Shown here: piece by piece, positions 1,997-25,141 of the stretch
Numbering within the stretch: the stretch's first letter is position 1
Layout of the letters: each line of letters begins with the position of its first letter
DNA from: an uncultured Sphaerobacteraceae bacterium
GTDB taxonomy: Bacteria; Chloroflexota; Chloroflexia; Thermomicrobiales; UBA6265
Length of the DNA stretch: 64,000 nt
Direction: 5' to 3'
NCBI GenBank assembly: GCA_964434995.1
Contig: CAYSXO010000001.1
Coordinates: 14,900-78,899, forward strand
The notes under the pieces: generated by a model
The model's input: only the letters and a program-made list of their open reading frames with translations
What the model was told of the DNA's origin: nothing
Databases searched by the model: none
Made by a program: the position numbers and the translations under genes

Positions 1997-2061
1997 ATTA
2001 GGAAGGCGGTGCTATCGCAGCCAGCGAGACGCAGCCGCAGCCAAGCTGGTTCGGCCCGCAG

Positions 2062-5378: not shown

Positions 5379-5392
5379 ACAAGCCCCCCGTC

Positions 5393-6787: not shown

Positions 6788-6823
6788 CGGACGTATGAAG
6801 GCAGGGAGGCAGGAGACGCAAGC

Positions 6824-10733: not shown

Positions 10734-10737
10734 CGCG

Positions 10738-11835
10738 ATGACGACGATCCCGCTCGACCTGCGCCTGGAACTGGACTACAAGCCTCACTTGCCGCCCAAG
10801 ACGGACTACGGCATAGCTTTCGTGGGCGCGGGGGGCATCGTCAACTTTGCCCATATCCCAGCCTACCGCAAGGCAGGCTTTCAGATGCTCGGCTGCTACG
10901 ACATCCGTCCGGAGGCCGCCGAGAAGACCGCCCGCGAGCACGACTTGCCGCGCGTCTACCTCACCCTAGAGGCGCTGCTGGCCGACCCGGCGGTGAACAT
11001 TGTGGACATCGCAGTGCTACCCTGGCACCAGCTTGAAGTGGTGCGCCAGGCGGCGGCAGCTGGGAAACACTTGCTCTGTCAGAAGCCCCTATCCGACAAG
11101 TACGCTGACGCTGTGGAGATCGTGCGGGTGGCCGAGGCGGCTGGAGTGACGCTGGCGGTCAACCATCAACTGCGCTGGGGGTCGGGTATCCGCGCAGCCA
11201 GGGCACTGCTCGACGGGGGTTGGCTGGGCGAGTTGATCGAAGCCCAGTTCATGGTCAGCACGCTTACCCCATTCGAATATTGGCCCTGGATGGCTGATTA
11301 CCCGCGCTACGACATCCTGCTCGACAGCATTCACTATATCGACGCTTTTCGTTTCTTGTTTGGCGATCCTGATCTGGTGACCAGCCGCCACAGCCGCCTG
11401 CCCGGCCAGGCCTTCAAGGGCGAAACCAAGACGATCTCAATCTGGGACTATCCCAACGGCTTTCAAGCCCTGATCGCGCAAAATGCGCACGATTGGACCA
11501 CCGATCGCTATGCGTTCTGCCGCATTCTGGGCCGCGACGGCTGGGCACGGAGTACGCTGCGGTCGGCTCTCGAATATCCCAACATTCAGCCCGACACCAT
11601 CGAGTGGCTTTCGCGAGAGCGCTATCCCCGGCACCGGTTTCACCTAACGCTTGAAGGCACCTGGATCCCGGACGCCTTCGTCGGCCCGATGGCGTCACTA
11701 ATGGAGGCGATCCAGACGGGCGGCGTGCCGGCCACGCCCGGCGCCGACAGCTTGGGCACCTTGCGCGTCGTCGAAGCCTGTTATCGGTCGGCTGCAGAAC
11801 ATCGTTCGGTGGCGCCGAGCGAGATCACCGCCTGA
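10738..11835 (+). CDS. Gfo/Idh/MocA-family NAD(P)-dependent oxidoreductase
   Basis: 'YGIAFVGAGGIVNFAHIPAYRKAG' is a Rossmann start, and 'LCQKPL' is the family signature. The ATG at 10738 lies just after the upstream TAA (10731-10733). Confidence 0.8.
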   Translation: MTTIPLDLRLELDYKPHLPPKTDYGIAFVGAGGIVNFAHIPAYRKAGFQMLGCYDIRPEAAEKTAREHDLPRVYLTLEALLADPAVNIVDIAVLPWHQLEVVRQAAAAGKHLLCQKPLSDKYADAVEIVRVAEAAGVTLAVNHQLRWGSGIRAARALLDGGWLGELIEAQFMVSTLTPFEYWPWMADYPRYDILLDSIHYIDAFRFLFGDPDLVTSRHSRLPGQAFKGETKTISIWDYPNGFQALIAQNAHDWTTDRYAFCRILGRDGWARSTLRSALEYPNIQPDTIEWLSRERYPRHRFHLTLEGTWIPDAFVGPMASLMEAIQTGGVPATPGADSLGTLRVVEACYRSAAEHRSVAPSEITA

Positions 11836-11862
11836 GCACAGCTTGAGGGAGAAGGGAATGCT

Positions 11863-12846
11863 ATGGAGGCAATAGAAACGGTCGGCCTTACGCCGGAGCA
11901 ATTGATCAGCATCTACCGCCACATGCTGCTCATCCGCCGCTTTGAAGAGGCGTTGAAAGACCTGTACGCGCGCGGTGATATGCCCGGCCTGGCCCACGTC
12001 TACATCGGCGAGGAAGCCGTGGCGGTCGGCGTGTGCACGGCGCTGCGCGGCGACGACTACATCACCAGCACCCATCGCGGCCACGGGCACGTCATTGCCA
12101 AGGGCGGCGACATCCGCCGGATGATGGCCGAGGTTATGGGCCGGCGCGATGGCTACTGCAAGGGCAAGGGCGGCGAGATGCATATCGCCGATTTCGAAGT
12201 GGGGATGCTGGGCGCGAACGGTATCGTCGGCGGCGGGTTAAGCCTGGCGACTGGCGCGGCCCTCGCCGCCCGCGTGCGCAGCACCGACCAGGTAGCCGTG
12301 TGTTTCTTCGGCGACGGCGGGGCCAACCAGGGCGTATTTGTCGAGACCATGAACATGGCCGCCACCTGGAAGCTGCCGATGATTTACGTGTGCGAGAACA
12401 ACACAGTGATGGAGTATACCGACTCGCGCCGGGTCAACGCTAACATGGAGATCGCGGAGCGCGGCAAGCCGTTTGGACTGGCGACCCAGGCGGTTGACGG
12501 CATGGACGTTCTGGCCGTCTATGAGGCCGCGCGTGATGCCGTGGCGCGCGCGCGCGCTGGGCAGGGGCCGTCGCTGATCGAGGCCAAGACTTACCGCTTC
12601 GAGGGTCATCACCAGGGCGATGTGCGCCAGAACATCTACAAGAAGCCGGAGGAGATCACCTATTGGAAAGGACGTGACCCGCTGCCAGCCTTTGCCCAGT
12701 CACTGCGCGCGGCGAAGGTGGCCGATGGTGACCTGCTGGAAGAGCTCGACGCCGAGATTGTCGCGTCCGTCGAGGCGGCCGTGGCGTTCGGCAAAGCGTC
12801 GCCTGCGCCCAGCTTGGAGGAGTTAAGCCACGATGTCTACGCGTGA
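11863..12846 (+). CDS. Thiamine-diphosphate-dependent 2-oxoacid (pyruvate/acetoin) dehydrogenase E1 alpha subunit
   Basis: 327-aa ORF. Motifs: 'YITSTHRGHGHVIAKG' and the TPP-binding block 'FFGDGGANQGVFVETMNMAATWKLPMIYVCENN'. Confidence 0.9.
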   Translation: MEAIETVGLTPEQLISIYRHMLLIRRFEEALKDLYARGDMPGLAHVYIGEEAVAVGVCTALRGDDYITSTHRGHGHVIAKGGDIRRMMAEVMGRRDGYCKGKGGEMHIADFEVGMLGANGIVGGGLSLATGAALAARVRSTDQVAVCFFGDGGANQGVFVETMNMAATWKLPMIYVCENNTVMEYTDSRRVNANMEIAERGKPFGLATQAVDGMDVLAVYEAARDAVARARAGQGPSLIEAKTYRFEGHHQGDVRQNIYKKPEEITYWKGRDPLPAFAQSLRAAKVADGDLLEELDAEIVASVEAAVAFGKASPAPSLEELSHDVYA

Positions 12847-13813
12847 GCTGACCTTCGTTGACGCGATCCGTGAGGCTATTGCTGAGGAAATGCGCACGGA
12901 TGCGTCGGTGTTCCTGATGGGTGAGGATGTGGGCCTCGCCGATGGAGTCTTCAAGGCCAGCGCCGGCCTCTACAGCGAGTTTGGTCCGCTGCGCATCATT
13001 GACACGCCGATCTCGGAAGAAGGCTTCACCGGTTTGGGGGTGGGCGCGGCACTGGCCAACACGCGCCCCATCGTAGAGCTGCTGTTCGGCGACTTCTCGG
13101 CCTTGGCCATGGACGCGATTGTGAATCAGGCGGCCAAGATTCGCTATATGACCGGCGGCCAGGCGCGCGTTCCGTTGACCATCCGCCTGACAATGGGCGC
13201 GGGGCGCTCACTAGCAGCGCAGCACTCACAGAGCCTGCAAGCCTGGTTTGCCCACATCCCGGGCTTGAAGGTCGTCATGCCATCCACGCCTTACGACGCC
13301 AAAGGACTCCTGAAAAGCGCCATCCGCGACGACAACCCGGTGCTCTTCTTTGAAGACAAGCTCATGTATGCCTCGGTCAAAGGACCGGTGCCGCAAGAGG
13401 AGTATTTCTTGCAGTTCGGCCAGGCCGACATCAAGCGCAGCGGCGCGCACGTCAGTGTGGTGGCGACCGCCCGCATGGTGCACGTGGCGCTCGAGGCTGC
13501 CGCCGATTTGAGCCAGGAGGGGATAGAACTGGAGGTGATTGACCCGCGCACGATTTCGCCCCTCGACCGCGACACCATTGTGGCCTCGGTGCGCAAGACC
13601 AAACGTCTGGTGGTGCTCGATCAAGGTTACCGCCATTGCGGCGTGGCGGCGGAAGTGATTGCCTCGGTGGCCGAAAGCGCATTCGACTACCTGGACGCGC
13701 CTCCGGTGCGTTTGAGCGCGCCGGACGTGCCAGTGCCCTTTGCACCGACTCTGGAAGGGGCCATCACCCCAACCAAGGAGCAGTTGGTCGCGGCCGTGCG
13801 GGAGATGATGTGA
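12833..13813 (+). CDS. 2-oxoacid (pyruvate/acetoin) dehydrogenase E1 beta subunit
   Basis: 326-aa ORF. 'FLMGEDVG...GVFKASAGLYSEFGPLRIIDTPISEEGFTG' is typical of E1 beta. It overlaps the E1 alpha stop. Confidence 0.9.
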   Translation: MSTRELTFVDAIREAIAEEMRTDASVFLMGEDVGLADGVFKASAGLYSEFGPLRIIDTPISEEGFTGLGVGAALANTRPIVELLFGDFSALAMDAIVNQAAKIRYMTGGQARVPLTIRLTMGAGRSLAAQHSQSLQAWFAHIPGLKVVMPSTPYDAKGLLKSAIRDDNPVLFFEDKLMYASVKGPVPQEEYFLQFGQADIKRSGAHVSVVATARMVHVALEAAADLSQEGIELEVIDPRTISPLDRDTIVASVRKTKRLVVLDQGYRHCGVAAEVIASVAESAFDYLDAPPVRLSAPDVPVPFAPTLEGAITPTKEQLVAAVREMM

Positions 13814-14958
13814 ACGCCACCGACCTAGTGATGCCCCGCATGGGGGCGACCATGACCGAAGGGGTGATCGTGCGGTGGCTGAAGCAGCCGGGCCAGGCCG
13901 TGCTGAGAGACGAGCCGGTGCTGGAGATCGAGACCGACAAGTCCACCGTCGAGCTCACCGCGCCCGCGGCAGGAGTACTTGGCCCCTGGCTGGCCGAGGT
14001 GGGGCAGACAGTACCCATTGGCCGGGCGCTGGTCGTGATCCGCCCCGCGGATGGAGCGGAACCGGCCCAGCCAGCTGAGGTACGCGCATCGCCTGTCGCC
14101 AAGCGCGTGGCGCGGGTGCACGGTATTGACTTGGCGGCCCTGAAAGGCACCGGCCCCGGCGGGCGCATTGTCGAAGAGGATGTGATGCGCGCCGTGGCCG
14201 CCCAGGGCAGCCCGACCATAGCCGAGCCTCAGCTGTTAGCTGTCCCTTCACCGGACCCGGTTGCCGCACCTGCGGAAATCAAGCGTGACCCACTGTCGGG
14301 GCTGCGCCGCATCACCGCCGAGCGCATGGCGCAGAGCTTTTCCACCGCCCCGCACTTCTATCTGCAGGTCGAAGTTGATGCCGGCGCGCTCGCGGCCTGG
14401 CTCGACAGACTCAACCGTCCACCCGTCGAAGCGGCGATCACCACTTACACCGATTTGCTCATCAAGCTAACGGCGGCGGCGTTGCGTGACCACCCTCGCG
14501 CCAACGCTCGGTGGGATGGCGACGGCGTCAGCTTCGGGCTGACCGTCAATTTGGGCCTGGCCGTGGCAACCGCCAAAGGACTGGTCGTCCCGGTGCTGCG
14601 CCGGGTGGAACAGTGTTCGCTGCGCGAGGTGAGCCGGCTGCGAGCCGAACTCGTCAGCCGTGCGCAGGCGGGCAAATTGCTGCCCGACGATTACGCGGAC
14701 GGCACCTTTACCCTAAGCAACCTGGGCATGTATCGGGTGGACTCGTTCCAGGCCATTCTCAACCCGCCACAGAGCGCCATCCTGGCGGTAGGGCGCATCA
14801 AGCCACGCCCCTACGTCGTCGCGGGCGCGCTGGCCGTCCGCCCCACGCTGCACCTGAATCTGACGGCTGACCACCGGGTGCTCGACGGAGCTGAGGCAGC
14901 GCACTTTCTAGATCGCCTGGTTGAACTGATTGAGACGCCGTCGCTGTTGATCGAATAA
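13810..14958 (+). CDS. Dihydrolipoamide acyltransferase (E2) with lipoyl, E1/E3-binding and catalytic domains
   Basis: The GTG at 13810 overlaps the E1 beta stop (GTGA). It has a lipoyl domain 'LEIETDKSTVEL', a subunit-binding domain 'ASPVAKRVARVHGIDLAALKGTGPGGRIVEEDV', and the catalytic motif 'DHRVLDGAEAA'. The tracked start at 13636 is a run-on inside E1 beta. Confidence 0.9.
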   Translation: MNATDLVMPRMGATMTEGVIVRWLKQPGQAVLRDEPVLEIETDKSTVELTAPAAGVLGPWLAEVGQTVPIGRALVVIRPADGAEPAQPAEVRASPVAKRVARVHGIDLAALKGTGPGGRIVEEDVMRAVAAQGSPTIAEPQLLAVPSPDPVAAPAEIKRDPLSGLRRITAERMAQSFSTAPHFYLQVEVDAGALAAWLDRLNRPPVEAAITTYTDLLIKLTAAALRDHPRANARWDGDGVSFGLTVNLGLAVATAKGLVVPVLRRVEQCSLREVSRLRAELVSRAQAGKLLPDDYADGTFTLSNLGMYRVDSFQAILNPPQSAILAVGRIKPRPYVVAGALAVRPTLHLNLTADHRVLDGAEAAHFLDRLVELIETPSLLIE

Positions 14959-14978
14959 TTCAAGTTGAGGACACTGCT

Positions 14979-15746
14979 ATGAACCGCGAAGACGAGATCA
15001 AACAAGGACTGTACGACCACACCCTAGTCGGTCACCACAAAGAGGTCCGGGAGTTGACCGAGGAGGCCATTGCCCTCGGCATGAAGCCCCTTGACCTGCT
15101 GTTTGGGGCCCTCATCCCCTCGCTGCAGGAGGTGGGCCGCCGCTTCGAGGTGGGCGATTATTTTGTGCCAGAGATGCTGCTGGCGGCCAAGGCTATGCAG
15201 CAGGCCCTAAACCTGTTACGGCCGCTGCTGGCACAGACCGGGGCCAAACCCATCGGCAAGGTCGTGATGCTGACGGTGAAAGGCGACCTGCACGACATCG
15301 GCAAGAACTTGTGCGACATGATGTTGGAGGGCGCGGGGTTCGAGGTCTATGACCTGGGCGTCAACATCGCGCCGGAAAAGTTGGTGGCCGGTGTAAAGCA
15401 GCATGAGCCGCAGCTTGTCGGCTTCTCCGCCTTTCTGACGACGACCATGCCGATGTTCAAGGTCAACATGGAGGCCCTGGCGAAGGAAGGGTTGCGCGAC
15501 AAGGTACGAGTGATGGTGGGTGGCGCGCCCGTGACGCAGCTCTACGCCGACAAGGCGGGCGCCGACGGCTACGCGCCCGATGCCAGTGCCACGGTGCGGC
15601 TGGCGAAGCGTTTGATGAGTGAGATGGGCTATGACATCACCGGCGGCCGCGAAGCCTCGGCCGAAGCAACCGCCGCCGTCACCGCCATGGAGCAGTTGAT
15701 GGATCAGGTTGGGCAGGCTGAGGCGCAAGAGGGCCAGACGTCGTGA
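14979..15746 (+). CDS. Cobalamin-binding corrinoid protein of a methyltransferase system (MtaC/MtbC-like)
   Basis: 255-aa ORF. It has an N-terminal helical cap and a B12-binding Rossmann domain with the D-x-H-x-x-G motif 'GDLHDIGKN', then 'GFSAFLTTTM' and 'VMVGGAPV'. Confidence 0.85.
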   Translation: MNREDEIKQGLYDHTLVGHHKEVRELTEEAIALGMKPLDLLFGALIPSLQEVGRRFEVGDYFVPEMLLAAKAMQQALNLLRPLLAQTGAKPIGKVVMLTVKGDLHDIGKNLCDMMLEGAGFEVYDLGVNIAPEKLVAGVKQHEPQLVGFSAFLTTTMPMFKVNMEALAKEGLRDKVRVMVGGAPVTQLYADKAGADGYAPDASATVRLAKRLMSEMGYDITGGREASAEATAAVTAMEQLMDQVGQAEAQEGQTS

Positions 15747-16864
15747 ACGGTCGGGAGCGCTTCCTGACAGCGCTGCGCGGCGGTGTGCCCGATCGTGTGC
15801 CCATTTACGAGTTCCACTGGAACCCGCGCTTCATCGAGAACGTGTTGGGCCGGCCGGCCGGCAAGCACAACGTGGATGACGAGGTCGAGATGTCACGCCG
15901 CACCGGCATTGACATGGTGTGGAGCGCGGCCTACGGCTTTTCGGCGCTCTACAACTGCCAGTACGAAGGCGACATCGAGCACTACCGCGACGAGTGGGGC
16001 ACACAGTATGGCACCAACGAGCACGCCTGGCCCGCCGGCTGGCCCGAAGATTATGCCGTCAACTCGCGCGAGGACTGGGAGCGAATCCAAGTGCCCGATC
16101 CTTGGCACCCGCGCCAGGTCGAGCAGCCGCGCCGCGCGGTAGAGTTGGCGGCCAACGAGTTGGCCGTGCTCGGCGGCGTGCGTGGCCCATTCTCGGGCGT
16201 GTGGATGCTGGCTGGACTGGTCAACCTAAGCCTGTGGGTCTACGAGGACCCCGACTTCTTGCAGGAATTGTTCCGCGTGATCGGCCAATGGAACACGCAG
16301 CTTGGCTTGGCCCTAATCCAAACCGGCGTAGACGCCATCGTCATCAACGACGACTATGGCATGAACGACAAGACCTTTATCAGCCCAGCCGATTGGCGCC
16401 GCCTGGTGCTGCCGGTGGTGGCCGAACAGGTGGAGACCCTCGCAGCCACTGGAACCCCCATCATCCTGCACAGCGACGGCAACCTCAACGCCATTCTCGA
16501 CGACCTGGTTCAGTTGCGTATTGATGGCCTGCACCCGCTCCAACGCTCGGCTCGCATGGACATCGCCGCCGTCAAGCAAAAGTATGGCGATCGGCTGTGC
16601 CTGCTGGGCAACTTGAGCGTTACCACCACCCTGCCGCACGGCACGGCCGACGATGTGGCCCGTGAGACTCTGGAATGCCTGCGCGACGCGGCGCCGGGCG
16701 GCGGGTACATCCTCGCCGCCGACCACTCGTTCCATGGCGGTGTGCCGATCGAAAACGTCTGGCGCGCGCTCGAGACCTGCCGCCGGTTTGGAACATATCC
16801 GCTGGATTTGCCGGCGATTGAAACCGAATGGGCGCGCTTGAAACCCACGGAGGCGACAGCATGA
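15743..16864 (+). CDS. URO-D/MtaA-family methyltransferase-like protein
   Basis: 373-aa ORF with a GTGA overlap with the corrinoid-protein stop. The N-terminus 'MNGRERFLTALRGGVPDRVPIYE' is typical. It carries 'LHSDGN' where its paralogues have H-x-C-G. Confidence 0.7.
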   Translation: MNGRERFLTALRGGVPDRVPIYEFHWNPRFIENVLGRPAGKHNVDDEVEMSRRTGIDMVWSAAYGFSALYNCQYEGDIEHYRDEWGTQYGTNEHAWPAGWPEDYAVNSREDWERIQVPDPWHPRQVEQPRRAVELAANELAVLGGVRGPFSGVWMLAGLVNLSLWVYEDPDFLQELFRVIGQWNTQLGLALIQTGVDAIVINDDYGMNDKTFISPADWRRLVLPVVAEQVETLAATGTPIILHSDGNLNAILDDLVQLRIDGLHPLQRSARMDIAAVKQKYGDRLCLLGNLSVTTTLPHGTADDVARETLECLRDAAPGGGYILAADHSFHGGVPIENVWRALETCRRFGTYPLDLPAIETEWARLKPTEATA

Positions 16865-17985
16865 GCGCGGTCCAAGACGGTTTTGACCCGCGGCCGCATC
16901 TCGACCAACTCGAGGAGTTAGTGGATGTTGAGCAGCAGCGCCGCGCCGAGGCCCGCCAGCTGGCGGCCCTGAAATTCGAGCCCCTGGACCGTCGCCCGAC
17001 CATTGTGACCTGCCGCGCCGATTGGAGCCACGCCCAGGAGGATTGGGCGCCGGGCTGGCCGTCCATTCCCTACGGCGAAACCTTCACCAACGCCGCCAAA
17101 ATGCTCATCAGCGAACTGGCGCGGGTGTACGAGGGCGCGCTGCTTCAGGATGACCGCGTCTTTACCATCCGGGCCAACTACGGGCTGGTGCTGATCACCT
17201 CCATTGTCGGGGCCGACTACTGGCAGGACGGTGACAACATGCCCTGGCCCATGCCCGTGGAGAGCTTGGCAGCGGTGCGGGCCATCATTGACCGCGGCAT
17301 GCCCGACCTGAATGCCGGTCTGGGGCGGCAGGTCTGGGAGACGGAGGCCTACTTCCGCGAGACCCTGGCCCAATACCCCAAGCTAGCGCAGACCGTCCAC
17401 ATAGGCTGCCCCGACCCGCAAGGCCCGTTTAACTTGGCGACCAACCTGGCCGGCGCGGCCATCTACCTGGCGACGCTCGAAGAGCCGGATATCGTCCATG
17501 ACGTGCTGGATTTTTTCGTGCCGATCTATATCGCGGTGATCGAAAAGCACAAGCTGCTCGTCGGCGAGGCGCCCGAGGCCGGCTACACCTTTAGCTGCCG
17601 GCTGCGGGGCGGCGGCCGTATCGTGGATGATACGGGCGTGATGCTCTCGGCCGAGATGTACCGCGAGTTCTGCGTGCCGCGCAACGCCCGCATTGCCACG
17701 GCGCTGGGCGGCTCCTTGGGTCACTTTTGCGGCAAGGGCATCCACTTCTACGAGGACTTCGTAAGCACCCCCGGCATCACCAGCCTTAACTTCGGCCAGC
17801 CGGAACTGCACGATCTGGTTCAGCGCTACGAGGTCGCCCGGCCGCACAAGGTCTGCCTGATGTGGGATGGTCACATTCCGCTTGAGGCTGACCACCTCAC
17901 CACCGGCATCATTCATCGTCGGGTTGTGCCGACCTGGCCAGAGGCTCAGGTCGTCGCCAACCAAATCTTTCGATCCGAGTCATGA
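16861..17985 (+). CDS. Divergent URO-D-like superfamily protein (possible third methyltransferase paralogue)
   Basis: The ATG at 16861 overlaps the upstream stop (ATGA). It has 'LGHFCGKG' (H-x-C-G), and its overall length and pattern resemble its neighbours. The assignment is weak. Confidence 0.45.
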   Translation: MSAVQDGFDPRPHLDQLEELVDVEQQRRAEARQLAALKFEPLDRRPTIVTCRADWSHAQEDWAPGWPSIPYGETFTNAAKMLISELARVYEGALLQDDRVFTIRANYGLVLITSIVGADYWQDGDNMPWPMPVESLAAVRAIIDRGMPDLNAGLGRQVWETEAYFRETLAQYPKLAQTVHIGCPDPQGPFNLATNLAGAAIYLATLEEPDIVHDVLDFFVPIYIAVIEKHKLLVGEAPEAGYTFSCRLRGGGRIVDDTGVMLSAEMYREFCVPRNARIATALGGSLGHFCGKGIHFYEDFVSTPGITSLNFGQPELHDLVQRYEVARPHKVCLMWDGHIPLEADHLTTGIIHRRVVPTWPEAQVVANQIFRSES

Positions 17986-18848
17986 ACGTCGCCATCGTTT
18001 TTGGCTTTTTGGGCGCGGGCAAGACCACCCTTATCCGGCGGCTGCTGGCGACGGCTGTTGCGCCGGGGCAGGTAGCCGTGCTGGTCAATGACTTCGGCCA
18101 GGTGAACGTGGATGGCAATACCCTGAGCGGTGAACACCTGCGAGTCCTGCCTCTCGCGTCCGGCTGCATTTGCTGCAGCCTGTCGGGTGCATTCGTGCCG
18201 GCGGTCGAGGAGTTGCATGCGCAGTGGCGGCCGGAGTGGCTCGTCATCGAGCCAACCGGGGTGGCCGCGCCCTATGCGCTGGAGGCGCTGCTGCGCGGCG
18301 AGCGGCTGGCCCGCATCGCCCGACTGGCGTGCGTGCTCACTGTTGTGGATGCCAGCCGCTTCAACCGTTACCGTCCCAAGCTGGGCGAGTTTTACACCGC
18401 CCAGGTGGAGCAGGCCGACCTTATCGTGATGAACAAGACTGATCTCGCGACGGCGGCGGAACAGCAGGCGACCGAGACCGCCTTACGCGCCCTGAACCCC
18501 ACCGGCCGGCTGATCGCCACCCAGTTCAGCCAGGTCAATTGGCGCGACGTGCTCTCCATCGGGGAGAGTGCTGCTCAGACCGAGGGCCACGTCCACGCGC
18601 CCGAGTTCGACACAGTTGAGCTGGCCTTGCCACCGCAAACTCGGGCTACATTGGAAGCCGCCTTTTCAGTCATCGGTTCCGGCGCACATGGCCGCATCTA
18701 CCGCGCCAAGGGCGTCGGCTTGATTGATGGGCAGGCCATGCTTATCAACTATGTAGACGGCTTGCTCCACCTGGAAGCGTCGACGGCCGACCCAACGCCG
18801 CTCGTCGTCATCGGGCACGATCTCGATCTTTCAGGCTGGGACGGTTAA
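17982..18848 (+). CDS. COG0523/CobW-family G3E GTPase (putative metallochaperone)
   Basis: 288-aa ORF. Motifs: Walker A 'GFLGAGKTTLIRRLL', metal-binding 'GCICCS', and 'LIVMNKTDL'. ATGA overlap with the upstream gene. Confidence 0.85.
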   Translation: MNVAIVFGFLGAGKTTLIRRLLATAVAPGQVAVLVNDFGQVNVDGNTLSGEHLRVLPLASGCICCSLSGAFVPAVEELHAQWRPEWLVIEPTGVAAPYALEALLRGERLARIARLACVLTVVDASRFNRYRPKLGEFYTAQVEQADLIVMNKTDLATAAEQQATETALRALNPTGRLIATQFSQVNWRDVLSIGESAAQTEGHVHAPEFDTVELALPPQTRATLEAAFSVIGSGAHGRIYRAKGVGLIDGQAMLINYVDGLLHLEASTADPTPLVVIGHDLDLSGWDG

Positions 18849-18878: not shown

Positions 18879-19661
18879 ATGAATGGTCGCGAACTCAAGG
18901 ACACCTGGAAGACTGGCAAGCCCAGCTTTGGCGCCTGGATCACCCTGGCTGACCCGGCAGTGTGCGCCATCATGTCGAACCTGGGCTTTGACTGGCTCTA
19001 CATAGACGCCGAGCACAACCCCTTCAACCCGGAAGCCCTGCGCACCATTCTCGTCACCCTGCGCGAGCGCGGCACCCCTGCCATCGTGCGGGTCCGGGCA
19101 GTAGACGAGGCCCTGGTGAAACCCCTGCTCGACTGGGGCGCCGAAGGCATCATGTTCCCTTTTATCCGGACCGCCAACGACGCGCGGCGGGCCGTGGCGG
19201 CCTGCCGCTATCCGCCGGATGGCATCCGGGGCTTCAATCCACGGGAGGCCTCCAACTATTACAAAGACCTCACGCCCTATCTCCAAACCGCCAACGACCG
19301 CATCATCGTCATCTTGCAGCTTGAACACGCCGATGCCATCGCCAACCTCGACGACATCATCGCAGTGCCGGGGGTGGATGCCCTAATGATCGGGCCGGCC
19401 GACCTGTCGTTTTCGCTGGGCGTTCCTTTGCAGCGCCAGCATCCCAAGATGCAGGCTGCCATTGACCTCGCCATCGAGAAGTGCCGCGCGGCCGGGATGC
19501 CGCTGGGGATGACGTGGGAAGACACCGACCAGGGCTACCTGGATTACTGCGCGCGCGGCATTACCTTTGTTTCGCCGTATGCCGATACCGACTTCTTGAT
19601 GATGGCCGGGATCAGGTGGCTGGATACGATGCGGTCGGGGGCCGGGGCCCGGCCCGACTAG
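18879..19661 (+). CDS. HpcH/HpaI-family 2-keto-3-deoxy-acid aldolase
   Basis: 260-aa ORF. 'GAWITLADPAVCAIMSNLGFDWLYIDAEHNP' and 'MFPFIRTANDARRAVAACRYPPDGIRG' are typical of the family. Confidence 0.8.
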   Translation: MNGRELKDTWKTGKPSFGAWITLADPAVCAIMSNLGFDWLYIDAEHNPFNPEALRTILVTLRERGTPAIVRVRAVDEALVKPLLDWGAEGIMFPFIRTANDARRAVAACRYPPDGIRGFNPREASNYYKDLTPYLQTANDRIIVILQLEHADAIANLDDIIAVPGVDALMIGPADLSFSLGVPLQRQHPKMQAAIDLAIEKCRAAGMPLGMTWEDTDQGYLDYCARGITFVSPYADTDFLMMAGIRWLDTMRSGAGARPD

Positions 19662-19668
19662 GCTTGGC

Positions 19669-20622
19669 GTGACGCTCACCCTGCTGATCGCCGATTGTTC
19701 CCTGAATGAGGCGCAGGCTGGCCGCATTGCCCAGAGCACGGCTGGCTGGGCCGACTGCACGCGCCTGCCGGGCGGTGCGCCGCATGCACAGTTCCAGGCA
19801 GCGGTGGCGGTAGCCGATATTGTCGTCGGCTGGCCAGCCCCTGCCTGGCTGCGCGATGGGCACCCCCGGCTGGTGCTGCTGCCTAGCGCCGGGTACGAGG
19901 AGTTTGAGGGCCAGGGTTTGGGCTCTCAGCCTGGCCTAACCATCTGCAACACCAGTGGCGTTTACAGCGTCGGCTGCGCTGAACATGCCGCGGCCCTGAT
20001 GCTGGCCCTCACACGGAATCTGGGCGCGCATGTGCGCGAGGCCGCTCACCGGCGCTGGAACCGCACACGGCCGTACGGCGAGATCGCGGGGGCTGGCGCT
20101 TGCATTGTTGGCCTGGGTGATGTCGGCCAGGCCGTGGCGCGGCGCTGCGCGGGCCTGGGGATGTCTGTCACGGGCGTGCGGCGTGCCGGCGGCGCGCCGC
20201 CGCCCGGCGTAACGCGAGTTTATCCGCCAGAGGCACTGCTGGCCGCGGTTGCCGAGGCCCAGCACGTCTTCTGCACCCTGCCGGGTGGCCGCGAGACCTT
20301 TCGCCTCATTGGGCGGGAAGTGTTCGCGGCCATGCCGGCAGGAAGCTACTTCTATAACCTGGGCCGGGGCAGCAGCGTGGACGAGACCGCGCTCATCGAG
20401 GCGCTTCGCGGCGGGCACCTACGCGGCGCGGGGATCGATGTGCTGGACCTAGAGCCGCCTCAGCCCGACAACCCGCTGTGGGAGATGGAGAACGTTATCC
20501 TAACCCCGCATGTGGCCGGGCTGGCCGCGCGCCATGCCGAGCGGCTGTGCGCTTTGGTCATCGAAAACCTCGCGCGCCGGCGCGAGGGGCGACCGCTGCT
20601 GAACGTACTGGCGCTGGACTGA
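19669..20622 (+). CDS. D-isomer-specific 2-hydroxyacid dehydrogenase family protein
   Basis: GTG start at 19669. It has the NAD-binding block 'ACIVGLGDVGQAVARRCAGLGMSVTG' and the C-terminal 'AGIDVLDLEP...NVILTPHVAG' with the catalytic His. Confidence 0.8.
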   Translation: MTLTLLIADCSLNEAQAGRIAQSTAGWADCTRLPGGAPHAQFQAAVAVADIVVGWPAPAWLRDGHPRLVLLPSAGYEEFEGQGLGSQPGLTICNTSGVYSVGCAEHAAALMLALTRNLGAHVREAAHRRWNRTRPYGEIAGAGACIVGLGDVGQAVARRCAGLGMSVTGVRRAGGAPPPGVTRVYPPEALLAAVAEAQHVFCTLPGGRETFRLIGREVFAAMPAGSYFYNLGRGSSVDETALIEALRGGHLRGAGIDVLDLEPPQPDNPLWEMENVILTPHVAGLAARHAERLCALVIENLARRREGRPLLNVLALD

Positions 20623-20643
20623 TCACGGGCGAAGGAGGCGCGC

Positions 20644-22077
20644 ATGCTGCGCTTGGGGCTGCTTTCATACTCCGATGGGCGCGACCGGGTCCATGCTGGC
20701 CTGGCGCCCGACATCCAGGCCCATCAAGACCGCCTTCGGGCCATCCTGCAGGCCACAGGAGAAGTGGAGGTGATGCCCGCGCCTGAAATTGTGCACTCGC
20801 CCGAAACCGCCCGGTCAGCAGCGCGCTACCTGGCCGACCAACGGCCCGACGCCGTGCTGCACAACATCTCTGTGTTCGCCTTTCCCAATTACATTGTCCT
20901 GGCAGTGCAGCAGTTCGCTCCTGGCCTGCATCTCTTGGTGGGTCCGCACGACCCCCGCTATCCCGGTCTTACCGGGCTGCTGGCGGCGGGCGGCGCTCTT
21001 ACCCAAGTCGGCATCTGGCACGAGCGGTTGTGGGTAGATCTGGATGACCCCGCCGTACCAGGTCAGGTGCTCGCGTTTGCGCGAGCCGCCGCCGCCGTCA
21101 CCCGGCTGCGCGGCCAGGTGTATGGGCTGATCGGCGGGCGCAGCATCGGCATGTACACCGGGGCGGCCCCAGCCGAGCTCTGGCAGCAGCAGTTTGGGGT
21201 GGATGTGGATCACGTAGACCAATCGGAGGTGGTGCGGCAGGCTGGGCTGGTGCCCGCCAGCGAGGTGAGCCTGGCCCAGACCTGGCTCCGGCAGCATGTG
21301 CGCGAAGTGGTTTTCGACGGCGACCTGTTCACGCCCGAGAAGTGGGACTTTCAACTGCGCTGCTACATCGCGCTGAAGGACATCATCGCGCGGCATCAAT
21401 TCGATTTTGCTGGCATCAAGTGCCACTACGACCTGAGCGAGTTTTACAGCGTGCAGTGCATCAGCGCCGCTTTCCTGAACGATCCCTACGACTGGCACGG
21501 CCCCAAACCCTCCGTGCCCCTGGCCTGCGAGGCTGATTCGGACGGCGCGCTGACAATGCAGTTGATGCGCCTCGTCGCCGACCGGCCGGCGTGCTTGTTG
21601 GACCTGCGGTTTTTCGACAAGCGGCACGGGGTCTACGTAATGCCCAACTGCGGCGCGGCGCCCACCTGGTTTGCGGCGCGCAGCGCCGACCCGGCCGAAA
21701 ACCTGGCGCGCGTCCGGCTCGTGCCGTCCATCAGCAAATATGCCGGCGGCGGCGCACACGTGCAGTTCGTCTTCGAGACCGGGCCCCTCACCCTGGCCCG
21801 GCTCACGCGCTCAGCCGCTGGCTATCAGATGGTCATTGGGCTGGGCGAGAGCATCAGCCTGCTACCCGACCAGGTGCTGGGCGCCGGCCCGCGCTGGCCG
21901 CACGCCTTTGTGCGGCTAGACCTCGCGCCCGATCGGCTCGTGCGCACGCTCCAGGCCAACCACCTGCATGCGGTGGCCGGCGACGTTCGCGCGGAGATCT
22001 TTCAGCTATGCCGGATGCTGAATGTGACCCCCGTGCCACTCGATCCTGCTACGGGCGCGCTTGCCAACAACGCTTGA
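20644..22077 (+). CDS. L-fucose/L-arabinose-isomerase-like sugar isomerase (COG2407-like)
   Basis: 477-aa ORF. 'PLACEADSDGALTMQLM' and 'MPNCGAAP' resemble the fucose-isomerase C-terminal domain family. Substrate is unknown. Confidence 0.6.
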   Translation: MLRLGLLSYSDGRDRVHAGLAPDIQAHQDRLRAILQATGEVEVMPAPEIVHSPETARSAARYLADQRPDAVLHNISVFAFPNYIVLAVQQFAPGLHLLVGPHDPRYPGLTGLLAAGGALTQVGIWHERLWVDLDDPAVPGQVLAFARAAAAVTRLRGQVYGLIGGRSIGMYTGAAPAELWQQQFGVDVDHVDQSEVVRQAGLVPASEVSLAQTWLRQHVREVVFDGDLFTPEKWDFQLRCYIALKDIIARHQFDFAGIKCHYDLSEFYSVQCISAAFLNDPYDWHGPKPSVPLACEADSDGALTMQLMRLVADRPACLLDLRFFDKRHGVYVMPNCGAAPTWFAARSADPAENLARVRLVPSISKYAGGGAHVQFVFETGPLTLARLTRSAAGYQMVIGLGESISLLPDQVLGAGPRWPHAFVRLDLAPDRLVRTLQANHLHAVAGDVRAEIFQLCRMLNVTPVPLDPATGALANNA

Positions 22078-22084
22078 GACCAGC

Positions 22085-23650
22085 GTGACGGCCTACCTCT
22101 TGGGCATCGATCTAGGCGGCACCGGCGCAAAGGCCGGTATTTTCACGCTGGATGGTGGTCTGGTAGGCTACGGCTATACGGAGTATGCCATGATCAGCCG
22201 CTTGCCGGGCCAGGCCGAGCACGATGCCGAAGGCTGGTGGCAGGCCACCACTCGGGCCGTCCGGCAGGCGCTGAGCGGCGTGCCGCCCAGCGCGATCCTG
22301 GCCGTGGGCGTGGGCTGCACGAATGGGCTGGTGGCCGTAGACCGGGTTGGGCAACCACTGCGCCCCGCTATCATGCTGTGGGATCAGCGCTCGCTGCCAG
22401 AGGTGGCCCGCATTCGCGCGGCTCTCGGAGAGGCTGAGGTGCAGACAGTCACGGGCAACCCGGTGGCGCCGGGAGCGTATTCGCTTCCCACCCTGCTCTG
22501 GCTGATGCATCACGAGCCCGACACCTACGCAGCGGCGCACAAGCTGATGGTCCCGGGCGGCTACCTGGTGGCGCGGCTCACCGGTAAATTCACCATTGAC
22601 CATTCGCGCGCCTGCACCACCTTGTTATTCGATATCCAGCGGCTGTCCTGGCATGAACCGTTCTTGAGCGCATTTGGCATCGCCGCGGAGAAGCTGCCTG
22701 AGCCCGTGCCGTCGCAGGCAGTGGCCGGTCGGGTGAGCGCCAAGGCTGCCGCCGAGACCGGCCTGCTGCCAGGCACGCCCGTTATGGCCGGCTGCATGGA
22801 TACCCTCGGCGCGGCGCTAGGTGCAGGGGTGATAGAGCCGGGCCAGGGCTTCATTATTATGGGGACAGCGGCGCGCGTGGCGACCACCCTCGCCGAGCCG
22901 AATTTTGATCACCGCCTGATGAACTGCACCCACTTCCAGGCGGGGCATTGGCTGGCCTTAGGCGCGCTGAATGGGGTGGGCTCGTCGCTTCGCTGGGTGC
23001 GCGATCAATTGGGCCAGGCCGAACAGGTGACGGCCAACGCCACCGGGCTAGACGTCTACGATCTGCTGACGGCCCAGGCCGCACTCGCGCCGCCCGGCAG
23101 TAAGGGTCTGATTTACCTACCCTATTTGGCCGGCGAGCGTACGCCAATCTGGGACCCCTACGCGCGCGGCGTGTTGTTTGGACTGACACTTGGGCATCAG
23201 CGGGCCGACGTTTTGCGCGCTGTGCTCGAAGGCGCAGCCATGGCGCTCCGGCAAGCTGTAGAACTCCTGGAAGCGACGAGCGGCCAGCGCCTGAATTGCC
23301 TTCGCGTTGGGGGCGCGGCCGCCGCCAGCCGTGTGTGGATGCAGATCATCGCCGATGTTCTGGGCAGGCCCATCGTCGGCCTGACCACCGCCCACAGCGA
23401 AGTGCTGGGCGCGGCCCTGCTCGCCGGCGTGGGGGCAGGGGCTTACAGCGACTTTGCCGAAGCCCGGCAGGCTTCGGCGCGGGGCGATACGCTCTACGAG
23501 TCTCAGCCCAGCGCACAGGCCGCCTATGACCAGCTCTATCCGATCTACACTGAGCTTTATCCAGCCGTAAAGCCATATTTTGAAAGGATCGCGCACCTCG
23601 ACCTGCCTCAGGTGTGGGTGACGCCGTCGGACAACCATGCTCAGCGATGA
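22085..23650 (+). CDS. FGGY-family carbohydrate kinase (xylulokinase-like)
   Basis: 'YLLGIDLGGTGAKAG' lies at the N-terminus, and 'YLPYLAGERTPIWDP' and 'LRVGGAAAASRVWMQIIADVLGRPI' are typical FGGY blocks. The GTG at 22085, 8 nt after the upstream stop, is preferred over the tracked TTG at 22061. Confidence 0.85.
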   Translation: MTAYLLGIDLGGTGAKAGIFTLDGGLVGYGYTEYAMISRLPGQAEHDAEGWWQATTRAVRQALSGVPPSAILAVGVGCTNGLVAVDRVGQPLRPAIMLWDQRSLPEVARIRAALGEAEVQTVTGNPVAPGAYSLPTLLWLMHHEPDTYAAAHKLMVPGGYLVARLTGKFTIDHSRACTTLLFDIQRLSWHEPFLSAFGIAAEKLPEPVPSQAVAGRVSAKAAAETGLLPGTPVMAGCMDTLGAALGAGVIEPGQGFIIMGTAARVATTLAEPNFDHRLMNCTHFQAGHWLALGALNGVGSSLRWVRDQLGQAEQVTANATGLDVYDLLTAQAALAPPGSKGLIYLPYLAGERTPIWDPYARGVLFGLTLGHQRADVLRAVLEGAAMALRQAVELLEATSGQRLNCLRVGGAAAASRVWMQIIADVLGRPIVGLTTAHSEVLGAALLAGVGAGAYSDFAEARQASARGDTLYESQPSAQAAYDQLYPIYTELYPAVKPYFERIAHLDLPQVWVTPSDNHAQR

Positions 23651-24218: not shown

Positions 24219-24243
24219 GAGCGGCAACTTCGGACAAATAGCC

Positions 24244-25131: not shown

Positions 25132-25141
25132 GAAGGTCAGC

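Follow-up and report, generated by a model that had tools for sequence, protein, structure and literature searches.

A gene block on the forward strand of a 64,000-nt stretch of Chloroflexota DNA (the window) encodes a corrinoid protein, two URO-D-fold proteins, and a COG0523 GTPase (14979–18848), and raises the question of which methyl group it handles and where that group goes. We give a probability of about 0.5 to the reading that these four genes work together as a corrinoid-dependent module for methyl transfer that serves the surrounding sugar operon, with demethylation of a methylated carbohydrate as its predicted function.

Gene order and domain content

The first gene (14979..15746, +) encodes a corrinoid (cobamide-binding) protein, predicted to be of the base-off/His-on type from its DLHDIG, SAFL, and GG motifs. 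It matched Pfam B12-binding_2 (9.4e-18) and B12-binding (1e-27) and contains KGDLHDIGKN; MtgC, MtbC, and TIGR02370 were the nearest NCBIfam models, every one below its cut-off. The following genes encode the MtaA/CmuA-like URO-D-fold methyltransferase A (15743..16864, +; Pfam URO-D 3e-37), the divergent URO-D-fold protein B (16861..17985, +), and a CobW-type G3E GTPase of COG0523, a putative metallochaperone (17982..18848, +). The latter carries the P-loop GFLGAGKT and a GCICC (CxCC) motif (Pfam cobW 3.3e-43, CobW_C 1.5e-5), and its ZigA and CobW equivalog scores were below cut-off. A third URO-D-fold paralogue, C, is encoded further upstream (6824..8029, +; Pfam URO-D 4.4e-14). A first-pass annotation had listed these five genes, and both the reading frames and the domains were recovered as described there. 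The true start of B is the ATG at 16861 and not position 16828, since the 374-aa protein P0001 matches the translation from that ATG at 100% identity.

All module junctions are 4-nt start/stop overlaps (GTGA, ATGA, and ATGA): the corrinoid-protein stop is overlapped by the GTG start of A, the A stop by the ATG of B, and the B stop by the ATG of the CobW gene. All module ORFs are intact and conserved. The order A-B-CobW was found again in three other contigs (L007, L092, and L118), with the CobW gene immediately 3' of B and B 84–86% identical, which argues against a chance arrangement; L118 begins within B, so that B-CobW alone is visible there. A corrinoid-protein gene lies upstream of A-B-CobW wherever one of these contigs extends far enough, and sugar-catabolic genes surround the module in all of these contigs. 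Corrinoid proteins adjoining B orthologues in L006, L007, L093, and L094 are 76–80% identical to that of the window. No cobalamin riboswitch was present at this locus, which counts against corrinoid-dependent demethylation. A sigma-70-like promoter match just 5' of the corrinoid-protein gene (14930..14959, +; 10/12 hexamer positions) is a weak lead, the number of such sites in the region not being above shuffled expectation.

The three paralogues differ at the metal site. The annotation had noted LHSDGN in place of H-x-C-G in one of them, and A indeed carries ILHSDGN, part of a metal triad (His243-x-Asp245...His328) that replaces His-x-Cys...Cys and whose residues align exactly with the zinc ligands of MtaA. 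In profile comparisons, the A family matched MtaA (4ay7, 7.8e-26) better than HemE (7e-15) and CdmB (1.4e-7). For the other two, H-x-C-G had been read as part of a His-x-Cys-x(n)-Cys zinc site. This applies in full to C (VHACGRN), in which His283, Cys285, and Cys376 form the complete MtaA-type set and are invariant in 30 homologues; C also aligned with family A (hhalign, 3e-17) with the motifs in register, and it adjoins B in L088 and L101. It applies by half to B (GHFCGKG), where Cys290 is invariant and His288 nearly so, and where the third ligand is not conserved as Cys across the family. B, whose family is found mostly in Chloroflexota, reached Pfam URO-D only at the cut-off (23.9 bits) and had no match in a sequence search of the PDB, and neither B nor C showed a detectable sequence match to MtaA or CdmB. 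An AF2 model of B (pLDDT 94.6) adopts the URO-D fold, with MtaA as the best Foldseek match (4ay8, 7.7e-11), HemE structures next, and weak MetE matches as well.

HemE structures are thus strong structural matches for B, and many family members are named 'uroporphyrinogen decarboxylase' in public sources. The reading that the paralogues are true HemE or inactive relics, with the corrinoid protein belonging to something else, is nevertheless effectively refuted: A scored 32.6 bits against the HemE model TIGR01464 (cut-off 303), B and C gave no hit, the conserved metal-ligand residues are not present in HemE, haem-pathway neighbours are absent, corrinoid domains occur fused or adjacent, and the ORFs are intact and conserved. 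The annotation's treatment of the paralogues as distinct from HemE therefore stands.

Sugar-catabolic surroundings

Upstream, a glycosidase (GHL6/alpha-L-fucosidase-like; 14–1996, −; Pfam GHL6 1e-14, Alpha_L_fucos 1.3e-7) and a GntR/FCD regulator (2062–2829, −; GntR 3.5e-20, FCD 6.4e-22) are placed divergently (14..2829, −) to a gene array (2930..14958, +) with intergenic gaps or overlaps of mostly <40 nt. By Pfam and NCBIfam, this array encodes RidA, an FAD amine oxidase, a DUF5981 protein, a class III aminotransferase, C, an aldehyde dehydrogenase, an M24/creatinase-like protein, a GFO/IDH/MocA oxidoreductase, and 2-oxoacid dehydrogenase E1a, E1b, and E2, with E1b (12833–13813, +) assigned from its translation alone. 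The aminotransferase, amine oxidase, RidA, and M24 protein point to amine chemistry outside the sugar-demethylation model. The stand-alone DUF5981 protein (4881..5378, +; PF12225, 2.2e-27), a Cys-rich domain like the C-terminus of methylene-THF reductase, may connect the array with the handling of THF-bound C1 units; MetF is not encoded in the window, and the DUF5981 protein is not conserved in related loci. A luciferase-like monooxygenase gene is also found in the window.

The downstream genes (18879..26218, +; Pfam) encode an HpcH/HpaI aldolase, a D-2-hydroxyacid dehydrogenase, an L-fucose-isomerase-family protein, an FGGY kinase, a class II aldolase (assigned via a 73% identical L007 gene with PF00596), a DHDPS-family aldolase, and an MR/MLE dehydratase. 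In L007, L092, and L118, CobW is likewise followed by the HpcH gene and those for the fucose-isomerase-like protein, FGGY kinase, and class II aldolase. At other loci, the context includes Opp transporters, sulfatases, NagA/B, and UxaC/E. In L076, a CUT1 sugar ABC transporter is followed by five URO-D paralogues and a corrinoid protein, and in L100 and L102, B lies directly adjacent to a corrinoid-protein gene, with a URO-D paralogue, within Opp-transporter/AGE/sulfatase clusters (L100 also with GFO and NagB). Neighbours of the A family across phyla comprise sugar transporters, LacI/DeoR/GntR regulators, SDR, AKR, and GH38. Furthermore, one ORF joins a GH67-like to a B-like domain (L172), on a single metagenomic contig in which a frameshift also occurs.

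This sugar-catabolic operon context is the main clue to the substrate of the module, and was overlooked in the first-pass annotation. It suggests that methyl groups are probably stripped from a methylated sugar, the choice of substrate being a guess drawn purely from genomic context; candidates are an O-methyl 6-deoxyhexose, an O-methyl uronate, or similar, and an S-methyl compound is possible. The URO-D-type MT1s known so far act on aryl methyl ethers, methyl thioethers, and halomethanes, and we know of no corrinoid methyltransferase that cleaves aliphatic (sugar) methyl ethers, which counts against the sugar-demethylation reading. The same context makes an anabolic role improbable. The corrinoid protein and a zinc thiol methyltransferase could form a split methionine-synthase-like or methylating system, as Zn-thiolate-type motifs occur in B and C and, in aerobes, a split cobalamin methionine synthase and a demethylase can use one and the same corrinoid protein (PMC12478193). 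However, the module lies among genes of catabolism, for transporters, LacI/GntR regulators, kinases, aldolases, and glycosidases, and is conserved together with them, and Pfam scans of the window gave neither a homocysteine-binding (PF02574) nor a pterin-binding module.

Partners of the corrinoid protein and fate of the methyl group

Two proteins, P0092 and P0100, are natural fusions of A with B12-binding_2 and B12-binding domains (about 56–58% identical to A; identity to the window proteins is 58% for the A part and 56% for the corrinoid part). On this sequence evidence, A is the best-supported candidate for the direct partner of the corrinoid protein. The annotation had found no recognisable MT1, which was overstated, as the MT1 of O-demethylases, CmuA, and CdmB normally belongs to the URO-D superfamily (PMC13222342). 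In the demethylation model, the methylated carbohydrate-derived substrate would be bound by a URO-D-fold methyltransferase, namely A, which has a His/Asp/His metal site, and probably B and C as well, which have His-x-Cys zinc sites, and the methyl group would pass to Co(I) of the corrinoid protein. A, B, and C would then be parallel MT1-type enzymes on one corrinoid protein, comparable to acetogen O-demethylase systems with multiple MT1s. The GTPase, translationally coupled to B, would load a metal, most likely Zn, into B.

Corrinoid dependence may not be general in the A and B families, since only ~5/80 A-family genome loci have a corrinoid-protein gene within 10 kb, as do none of the 20 informative loci of distant B-like genes (<45% identity). 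A alone might use the corrinoid protein, with B and C as zinc enzymes that catalyze a corrinoid-independent sugar step (such as a decarboxylation, an isomerisation, or a MetE-like direct methyl transfer) and are neighbours through a common pathway. B is indeed solitary in three sugar clusters (L001, L002, and L005), paired with a paralogue but no corrinoid-protein gene in L003 and L095–L098, and in L088 an Opp transporter is followed by four URO-D paralogues on a contig without such a gene; in addition, the URO-D clan includes cofactor-free decarboxylases and corrinoid-independent MetE, which appeared among the Foldseek matches. We nevertheless consider this alternative unlikely. Among the 14 informative orthologous loci (B identity ≥45%), 8 have a corrinoid-protein gene ≤5 kb from B, directly adjacent in L100 and L102, and 11 have another URO-D paralogue ≤2.5 kb away. 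In the window, translational coupling ties B to both A and CobW, and the MAG of L002 has, at another locus (L022), an A homologue and a fusion with a corrinoid domain, so that B could be used in trans.

The acceptor side has no obvious local gene. Pterin_bind, MttB, MtaB, and RACE/RamA-type proteins were absent from the scanned ORFs of the 64-kb window (Pfam; ORFs ≥200 aa not overlapping better-supported genes, plus shorter annotated ORFs), in agreement with the annotation's claim that MttB/MtaB-type methyltransferases and a RamA-like activase are missing, and tblastn of the window with pterin-binding MT2 gave nothing. The methyl cycle can thus not be closed by local genes. In aerobic cobalamin methyltransferase systems, MT2 and RamA/activase genes are normally scattered (PMC12478193). 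The sister locus L006 (B-UROD2-corrinoid protein-Pterin_bind), the one among the 8 B loci with a nearby corrinoid-protein gene that has a pterin-binding methyltransferase, favours tetrahydrofolate over a thiol as acceptor. Methyl-Co(III) protein would most likely be unloaded to tetrahydrofolate by a pterin-binding MT2 encoded elsewhere, reductive reactivation would fall to an unlinked activase, and the demethylated sugar would enter the isomerase/kinase/aldolase and dehydratase/aldolase routes encoded downstream.

A self-contained system is a tentative alternative: A would be the MT1, and B or C a zinc MT2 transferring the methyl group of the methyl-corrinoid protein to homocysteine or another low-molecular-weight thiol, with Zn supplied by CobW and no THF enzyme. 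All related loci except L006 lack a pterin-binding MT2, the corrinoid-fused enzymes are A-type, like the MT1 in CmuA, and His-x-Cys...Cys, complete in C and partial in B, defines methylcobamide:thiol methyltransferases. Moreover, B is kept (52–86% identity) while its URO-D partner varies by locus (A, 'HND' type, or UROD2), a pattern that would suit an acceptor-side enzyme that stays the same while the donor-side enzymes change. Against this, Zn His-x-Cys sites are also present in CmuA and MtsA, which are of the MT1 type, Cys is not conserved as the third ligand in B, L006 would have two MT2s, and a solitary B in sugar clusters is odd for an acceptor-side enzyme. The MT1/MT2 roles of the paralogues, like the substrate, are inferred.

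Comparison with known systems

URO-D-type MT1s and the link between COG0523 and corrinoid proteins are already known. Like the three-component O-demethylases (OdmABCD/Vdm of Acetobacterium dehalogenans, MtvABC of Moorella, MtoABCD of Methermicoccus, and CdmBCA), the module combines a URO-D-superfamily substrate-side methyltransferase with a small B12-binding_2 + B12-binding corrinoid protein, which in O-demethylases can be common to several MT1 paralogues, and L006 has the expected pterin-binding MT2. The window differs in lacking this MT2 and a RACE activase, in having a COG0523 gene within the module, in its carbohydrate-catabolic rather than aromatic or halomethane context, and in its Chloroflexota-type host with amine oxidase and luciferase-like monooxygenase genes, which is not a strict-anaerobe acetogen or methanogen. 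A is nearer MtaA than CdmB, and B and C match neither by sequence.

MtaA/MtbA/MtsA (TIGR01463; 4ay7/4ay8) are the best match for A by sequence and for B by structure, with the same barrel and metal ligands at the same positions, which C keeps exactly as His-x-Cys...Cys; however, all scores are far under the family cut-offs, and A has His-x-Asp...His instead. To our knowledge, coenzyme M is not expected in Chloroflexota, so that the acceptor or donor must differ from these systems. CmuA/CmuB of aerobic methylotrophs (chloromethane) share the aerobic host and, in P0092 and P0100, the fusion of URO-D methyltransferase and corrinoid domain, but in the window A is encoded separately from the corrinoid protein, no CmuB-like pterin methyltransferase adjoins them, and the context is sugar catabolism and not C1 metabolism.

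Type 1 mlp clusters (Kountz & Balskus, PMC10418091) likewise combine several MtaA-like URO-D paralogues with an adjacent corrinoid protein and lack a THF methyltransferase, and their substrates are not known either. They have a Ram/RACE activase, occur in obligate anaerobes only (73% Firmicutes), are related to methyl-sulfur or methyl-selenide metabolism, and, unlike the module, are not described with COG0523 or sugar operons. By gene context, the GTPase resembles COG0523 subfamily 13, described in 2009 as co-localised with corrinoid-dependent, Zn-containing methyltransferases (Haas et al. 2009, PMC2770081). Those cases adjoin mtaABC/ramM in Methanosarcina, Methanococcus, and clostridia, whereas in the window, from Chloroflexota, the GTPase gene is coupled in translation to that of a divergent URO-D-fold protein.

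A functional parallel is the cytochrome P450 demethylase of 6-O-methyl-D-galactose in porphyran utilisation, which removes a sugar O-methyl group and so lets standard sugar catabolism proceed (PMC10033563); the module would do the same. The P450 reaction is oxidative and O2-dependent and releases formaldehyde, whereas the module would move the methyl group to the corrinoid non-oxidatively.

Gene content of the module and affiliation of its paralogues

The module comprises four genes on the plus strand, encoding a corrinoid protein of 255 aa (14979–15746), the URO-D-fold paralogues A (373 aa, 15743–16864) and B (374 aa, 16861–17985), and a COG0523 GTPase, here called CobW (17982–18848). The third paralogue, C, is encoded apart from it on the same strand (6824–8029). 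The first-pass annotation had described these five genes, and ORF translation and Pfam analysis bore them out in every detail. An in-frame ATG lies further upstream of B at 16828; the public protein P0001 begins at 16861. Successive genes of the module share GTGA, ATGA, and ATGA start/stop overlaps, from which we conclude that all four are translationally coupled. Antisense ORFs of the module are the usual high-GC artefacts. An Rfam scan of the window revealed neither a cobalamin riboswitch nor any other Rfam family, repeats within 14.5–19.2 kb were short chance matches only, and terminator and promoter counts were not above chance, the lone promoter-like site ahead of the corrinoid-protein gene being a weak lead.

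The corrinoid protein combines a B12-binding_2 cap (9.4e-18) with a Rossmann-type B12-binding domain (1e-27), in which the DxHxxG motif occurs as DLHDIG, part of the base-off/His-on signature KGDLHDIGKN; it scored 179.5 bits against TIGR02370 and thus stayed under the cut-off of 215.3. CobW has a complete set of features, i.e., a cobW domain (PF02492, 3.3e-43) with P-loop (GAGKT) and CxCC motif (GCICC), and CobW_C (PF07683, 1.5e-5), and it is likewise under the equivalog cut-offs for ZigA (115.5 vs. 600) and CobW (108.3 vs. 332.1).

The URO-D (beta/alpha)8-barrel fold was assigned by Pfam for A (3e-37; motif ILHSDGN) and C (4.4e-14; motif VHACGRN), and by predicted structure for B (motif GHFCGKG), which matches the Pfam URO-D model no better than at its cut-off (23.9 bits). 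HemE-type decarboxylases, which the first-pass annotation had named as an alternative to its proposal, are ruled out for all three paralogues by the HemE equivalog TIGR01464 (cut-off 302.95 bits): A scored 32.6 bits, and B and C gave no match at E ≤ 0.01. None of them reached the cut-offs of the MtaA/CmuA models TIGR01463 and PRK06252 either (235.4 and 244 bits), with scores of 80.1 and 87.0 for A, 20.9 and 21.9 for B, and 15.5 and 27.2 for C.

Family A comprises more than 1,600 relatives from Chloroflexota, Planctomycetota, Spirochaetota, Bacteroidota, Verrucomicrobiota, and Firmicutes, which share the motif HS[DC]GN. Its profile matched MtaA best (4ay7, 7.8e-26), followed by HemE (7e-15) and, weaker than both, CdmB (9rui, 1.4e-7), the sole O-demethylase-type MT1 (substrate-side methyltransferase) compared; B and C gave no match to CdmB. 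In the family A profile alignment, H243, D245, and H328 of A align exactly with the zinc ligands of MtaA (HICGN, PGCGI), so A appears to keep the metal site, as a His/Asp/His variant. The B family is small, with 49 clusters at 90% identity in a word-indexed search, and the few members that carry a name belong to Chloroflexi or Caldilineales MAGs. Searches of the PDB with the sequences and family profiles of B and C returned no significant match, and B was therefore placed only via its predicted structure. An AlphaFold (AF2) model built from 29 sequences (pLDDT 94.6, pTM 0.92) matched MtaA best in Foldseek (4ay8, 7.7e-11), then HemE structures, and MetE far more weakly.

The first-pass annotation had further read the H-x-C-G motifs of B and C as a His-x-Cys...Cys zinc site. 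At the level of sequence motifs, this holds fully for C, in which H283, C285, and C376 are invariant and form the complete MtaA-type set, and hhalign placed the metal-motif residues of C and A in register. For B, it holds only for C290, which is invariant, and H288, which is near-invariant; the downstream Cys of KVCLMWDG is not invariant, and His352 is a candidate third ligand by position. Among the URO-D-fold paralogues of the arrays described below, four motif classes can be told apart: HSDG..DHS, HxCG..C, YHNDTPC ('HND' type), and HHCG..CCINM (UROD2).

Association of the paralogues with the corrinoid protein

In two metagenomic proteins of 608–609 aa (P0092 and P0100), an A-type domain precedes B12-binding_2 and B12-binding. 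The A-type domain shares 58% identity with A and retains its HSDGN and DHS motifs, and the corrinoid portion shares 56% identity with the corrinoid protein of the window. By the classical fusion argument, these proteins, which have the architecture of CmuA, point to a direct partnership between A and the corrinoid protein.

For B, loci were collected from assemblies, genomes, and metagenomes and scored by tblastn, of which 14 were orthologous (at least 45% identity) and had usable flanks. A corrinoid-protein gene was located within 5 kb of B in eight of these 14 loci, and a further URO-D paralogue within 2.5 kb in 11 of 14. The gene order varies: corrinoid protein–A–B–CobW in L007; B–x–UROD2–corrinoid protein in L006, L093, and L094; B–corrinoid protein–URO-D in L100; URO-D–corrinoid protein–B in L102; and C–B–URO-D–corrinoid protein–UROD2 in L101. 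The corrinoid proteins at these loci are 62–80% identical to that of the window and hence seem to travel with B. B occurs without a partner in L001, L002, and L005, pairs of B and an 'HND'-type paralogue (L003 and L095–L098) come without a corrinoid-protein gene, and the 20 informative loci of distant B-like genes (<45% identity) all lacked such a gene beside them. One MAG holds both L002, with B alone, and L022, with an A homologue and a corrinoid-domain fusion, which makes the use of a corrinoid protein in trans plausible. That B and C work independently of corrinoid proteins altogether ranks third among the readings weighed and seems improbable to us. Fusions, neighbourhood, and translational coupling together are genetic evidence that A and B probably cooperate with their cognate corrinoid protein.

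Three other genes were dismissed as conserved partners: a pterin-binding MT2 (acceptor-side methyltransferase) occurs in L006 only, CobW in the 84–86% clade only, and the DUF5981 gene in the window only. In L006, a hydrophobic ORF of ~140–190 aa with no Pfam match (2965–3531, plus strand) keeps its position between B and UROD2, as it does in L094. A second type of fusion is encoded in L020 (13656–15485, minus strand) and L022 (15385–17214, minus strand). This 609-aa protein joins a 390-aa N-domain, which has no Pfam match, is weakly URO-D-like, and contains the motif FYHLDGKG, to B12-binding_2 and B12-binding. Its N-domain also has stand-alone homologues (L042 and L045). The protein probably represents another undescribed family of corrinoid methyltransferases in Chloroflexota. 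Furthermore, arrays of three to nine URO-D-fold paralogues were observed in Chloroflexota and related MAGs (L035, L045, L076, L088, and L133), often behind sugar ABC transporters and only in some cases with a corrinoid-protein gene.

Carbohydrate-catabolic setting

The module is enclosed by a same-strand array of ~23 genes (~2930–26218, plus strand) with gaps or overlaps of mostly <40 nt. Before the module, the array encodes RidA, an FAD amine oxidase, DUF5981, a class III aminotransferase, C, an aldehyde dehydrogenase, an M24/creatinase-like protein, a GFO/IDH/MocA oxidoreductase, and 2-oxoacid dehydrogenase E1a, E1b, and E2. After the module follow an HpcH aldolase, a D-2-hydroxyacid dehydrogenase, a protein with all three L-fucose-isomerase domains, an FGGY kinase, a class II aldolase, a DHDPS-family aldolase, and an MR/MLE dehydratase. 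Phosphorylative fucose/rhamnose routes employ enzymes of the isomerase, FGGY kinase, and class II aldolase types, and non-phosphorylative routes those of the MR/MLE dehydratase, HpcH or DHDPS aldolase, and aldehyde dehydrogenase types. Upstream on the opposite strand lie a GntR/FCD regulator and a GHL6/alpha-L-fucosidase-like glycosidase.

The genes downstream of CobW recur in three further contigs, with the order A–B–CobW–HpcH–FucI-like–FGGY–AldII in L092 and B–CobW–FGGY–AldII–DHDPS in L007 and L118, of which L007 runs on into BNR sialidase-like genes. More distant B orthologues are located in clusters of LacI, Opp-type ABC, GFO, AGE-epimerase, sulfatase, NagA, NagB, UxaC, UxaE, and LarA-like genes, and in L100 and L102 the corrinoid-protein gene sits directly beside B within such a sugar-type cluster. 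Neighbours of family A across phyla comprise sugar ABC and MFS transporters, LacI/DeoR/GntR regulators, SDR, AKR, Zn-ADH, transaldolase, xylose-isomerase-like barrels, and GH38, and L076 contains, in a row, a CUT1 sugar transporter, five URO-D paralogues, and one corrinoid protein.

Polysaccharides of plants, algae, and cyanobacteria commonly contain methylated sugars, such as 4-O-methyl-glucuronate (xylan), 2-O-methyl-fucose and 2-O-methyl-xylose (rhamnogalacturonan II), 6-O-methyl-galactose (porphyran), and O-methyl deoxyhexoses (cyanobacterial slime). To our knowledge, no enzyme removing these methyl groups is known save one oxygen-dependent P450, and we know of no case in which corrinoid methyltransferases were shown to cleave an aliphatic methyl ether non-oxidatively. 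GH67 enzymes free 4-O-methyl-glucuronate from xylan. A profile search of 1.84 billion representatives yielded 1,950 B-like proteins, one of which (P0355; L172, 2050–5303) joins a GH67-like domain (alpha-glucuronidase family) and a B-like domain in one 1003-aa ORF, with a xylose-isomerase-like barrel downstream; a frameshift just before the His-x-Cys motif cuts off the remainder of the B-like domain. This ORF reflects either a genuine fusion or a misassembly. It was downgraded from strong Rosetta-stone evidence to adjacency, as it is confined to a single contig with a frameshift.

The best-supported reading is that the module performs corrinoid-dependent demethylation, by which a methylated carbohydrate enters the catabolic pathway encoded around it. 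Its direct basis is formed by domain content, translational coupling, the A–corrinoid fusions, the B–corrinoid neighbourhood, and the conserved sugar context. From the catabolic context we infer demethylation as the direction of transfer, and we further infer substrate class, metal identity, and acceptor. O-methyl fucose or rhamnose, 4-O-methyl-glucuronate, and methyl-cyclitols are among the candidates for the substrate. As a contextual hypothesis, demethylation of methylated sugars by these enzymes has a probability of roughly one in three in our estimate (about 0.35). Equally tentatively, Chloroflexota and, by extension, many saccharolytic phyla with A-family genes in sugar loci may demethylate methylated carbohydrates by means of corrinoid and URO-D-fold proteins, with a dedicated COG0523 chaperone metallating the zinc enzyme.

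Several features of the array stand beside this reading. Genes of amine chemistry (RidA, FAD amine oxidase, class III aminotransferase, and M24/creatinase-like) and a 2-oxoacid dehydrogenase set without E3 are found amid fucose/rhamnose-like sugar genes. A class III aminotransferase gene repeatedly lies immediately next to URO-D-fold genes, which belong to three different subfamilies: A (Ardenticatenia and Anaerolineae), distant B-like genes (metagenomes), and C (window, 5393–8029). This applies to L009–L013, L024, L114, L115, L121, L123, and L131 besides the window, often with a GFO/IDH/MocA oxidoreductase or a xylose-isomerase-like barrel close by, and suggests keto-sugar, amino-sugar, or cyclitol chemistry tied to URO-D-fold enzymes. 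DUF5981 (4881–5378, plus strand) is a stand-alone Cys-rich protein (CxxCxxC...PCGG) resembling the C-terminal part of methylene-THF reductase. No MetF gene is present anywhere in the window, and DUF5981 is not conserved among the related loci; it might link the operon with C1 units bound to THF or serve as an electron carrier.

Division of labor, known systems, and further features of the window

In the proposed mechanism, one or more of the URO-D-fold enzymes would move a methyl group onto the corrinoid protein's Co(I), the resulting methyl-corrinoid would then be unloaded to an acceptor, and CobW would metallate the His-x-Cys enzyme with which it is translationally coupled. A Pfam scan of the 64 kb, covering ORFs of at least 200 aa minus those overlapping better-supported genes plus shorter annotated ORFs, detected no PF00809 pterin-binding MT2, no MttB/MtaB/MtgB-type MT1, and no RACE/RamA reductive activase. 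The first-pass annotation, which had recognised no such MT1 or activase, was thus right within the window. Likewise, tblastn of the window with the pterin-binding MT2 of a related locus returned nothing, and called or annotated genes of the related loci examined included no RACE/RamA activase. L006 alone has a Pterin_bind/CdhD-type gene, after the corrinoid-protein gene. It is the only direct clue to THF as the acceptor; the stand-alone DUF5981 gene of the window array is a second, weak hint. In aerobic Ruegeria, the genes for MtgB, MtgC, MtgD, MtgE, and RamA are scattered and the corrinoid protein is common to the pathways (PMC12478193), so a non-local MT2 and activase would not be unusual.

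We rank first, at even odds, that A, B, and C all work in parallel on the substrate side and that the MT2 is encoded elsewhere. This is favored by L006, which carries B plus a pterin MT2, and by lone B genes embedded in sugar clusters, both of which count against B as MT2. The second-ranked reading, a self-contained system with A as MT1 and B or C as thiol-MT2, is doubtful on these same two observations; yet B remains constant while its partner varies between A (HSDG..DHS), the 'HND' type (YHNDTPC), and UROD2 (HHCG..CCINM), corrinoid-domain fusions involve A-type enzymes, like the MT1 in CmuA, and B has a thiolate-type motif. Since the evidence points both ways, with the variable partners on one side and L006 on the other, we make no MT1-versus-MT2 assignment from metal motifs or partner variation. 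The first-pass observation is borne out, and the first-pass interpretation, with the HSDG paralogue as possible MT1 and the H-x-C-G paralogues as MT2-like, has support in part. MtoA was discarded as a precedent for a URO-D-type pterin MT2, as it is MtrH-like.

A corrinoid protein plus URO-D-type methyltransferases is a known kind of system, and functionally the module is like the multi-MT1 O-demethylase systems (Odm/Vdm/Mtv/Mto/Cdm; PMC13222342, PMC8630106) and CmuAB. It differs from the three-component O-demethylase in that its cluster lacks a pterin-binding MT2 and a RACE/RamA activase. By sequence, MtaA is nearest to A, and no module protein reaches a curated family cut-off. Type 1 mlp clusters of obligate anaerobes comprise Mlp2 and Mlp3 orthologues, a corrinoid protein, and an activase of the Ram/RACE type (PMC10418091); as described by Kountz and Balskus, they always contain RACE, unlike the module, and are tied to methyl-sulfur or methyl-selenide metabolism (PMC10418091). 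The association of COG0523 with corrinoid methyltransferases was noted before by Haas et al., who placed COG0523 subfamily 13 beside mtaABC/ramM (PMC2770081). Distinctive features are the divergent, mostly Chloroflexota B family, the putative His/Asp/His version of MtaA's metal site in A, the translationally coupled COG0523 gene, and the consistent setting in carbohydrate-catabolic operons. Our literature search found nothing on corrinoid-dependent sugar demethylation or URO-D genes in carbohydrate loci; the sole methoxy-sugar demethylase in the searched literature was a P450 acting on 6-O-methyl-galactose (PMC10033563).

If true, the proposed function would mean non-oxidative cleavage of aliphatic methyl ethers by corrinoid methyltransferases, an oxygen-independent alternative to the P450, and the addition of carbohydrates to the aryl ethers, thioethers, amines, and halomethanes on which corrinoid methyltransferases act. 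The corrinoid protein, the three URO-D-fold families, and the chaperone form a clonable candidate set that could make the question of sugar demethylation testable, and B and CobW are a tractable pair for the role of COG0523 proteins beside corrinoid methyltransferases. Should the proposed substrate class prove mistaken, the module is one more uncharacterised MtaA-like cluster of an already catalogued kind.

Outside the array, an Opp-type ABC transporter (SBP_bac_5, two permeases, and two ATPases) is encoded at 36787–47497 on the minus strand together with a luciferase-like monooxygenase, a CN hydrolase, an amidohydrolase, and an FAD_binding_2 oxidoreductase. This transporter type accompanies B orthologues elsewhere; here, it lies 18 kb off on the opposite strand. 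AT skew reaches 0.21–0.26 at 26001–30000, well above the rest of the window, in a region with minus-strand MatE and MFS transporter genes. Finally, 49073–61490 is a probable defence or mobile island, comprising a PLD-domain plus helicase protein (49073–52021, minus strand), the type I restriction-modification genes hsdM, hsdS, and hsdR, a Ser/Thr kinase-like gene, and two ORFs without Pfam match, with a GC content of 51–52% at 54–58 kb vs. ~62–65% elsewhere in the window.
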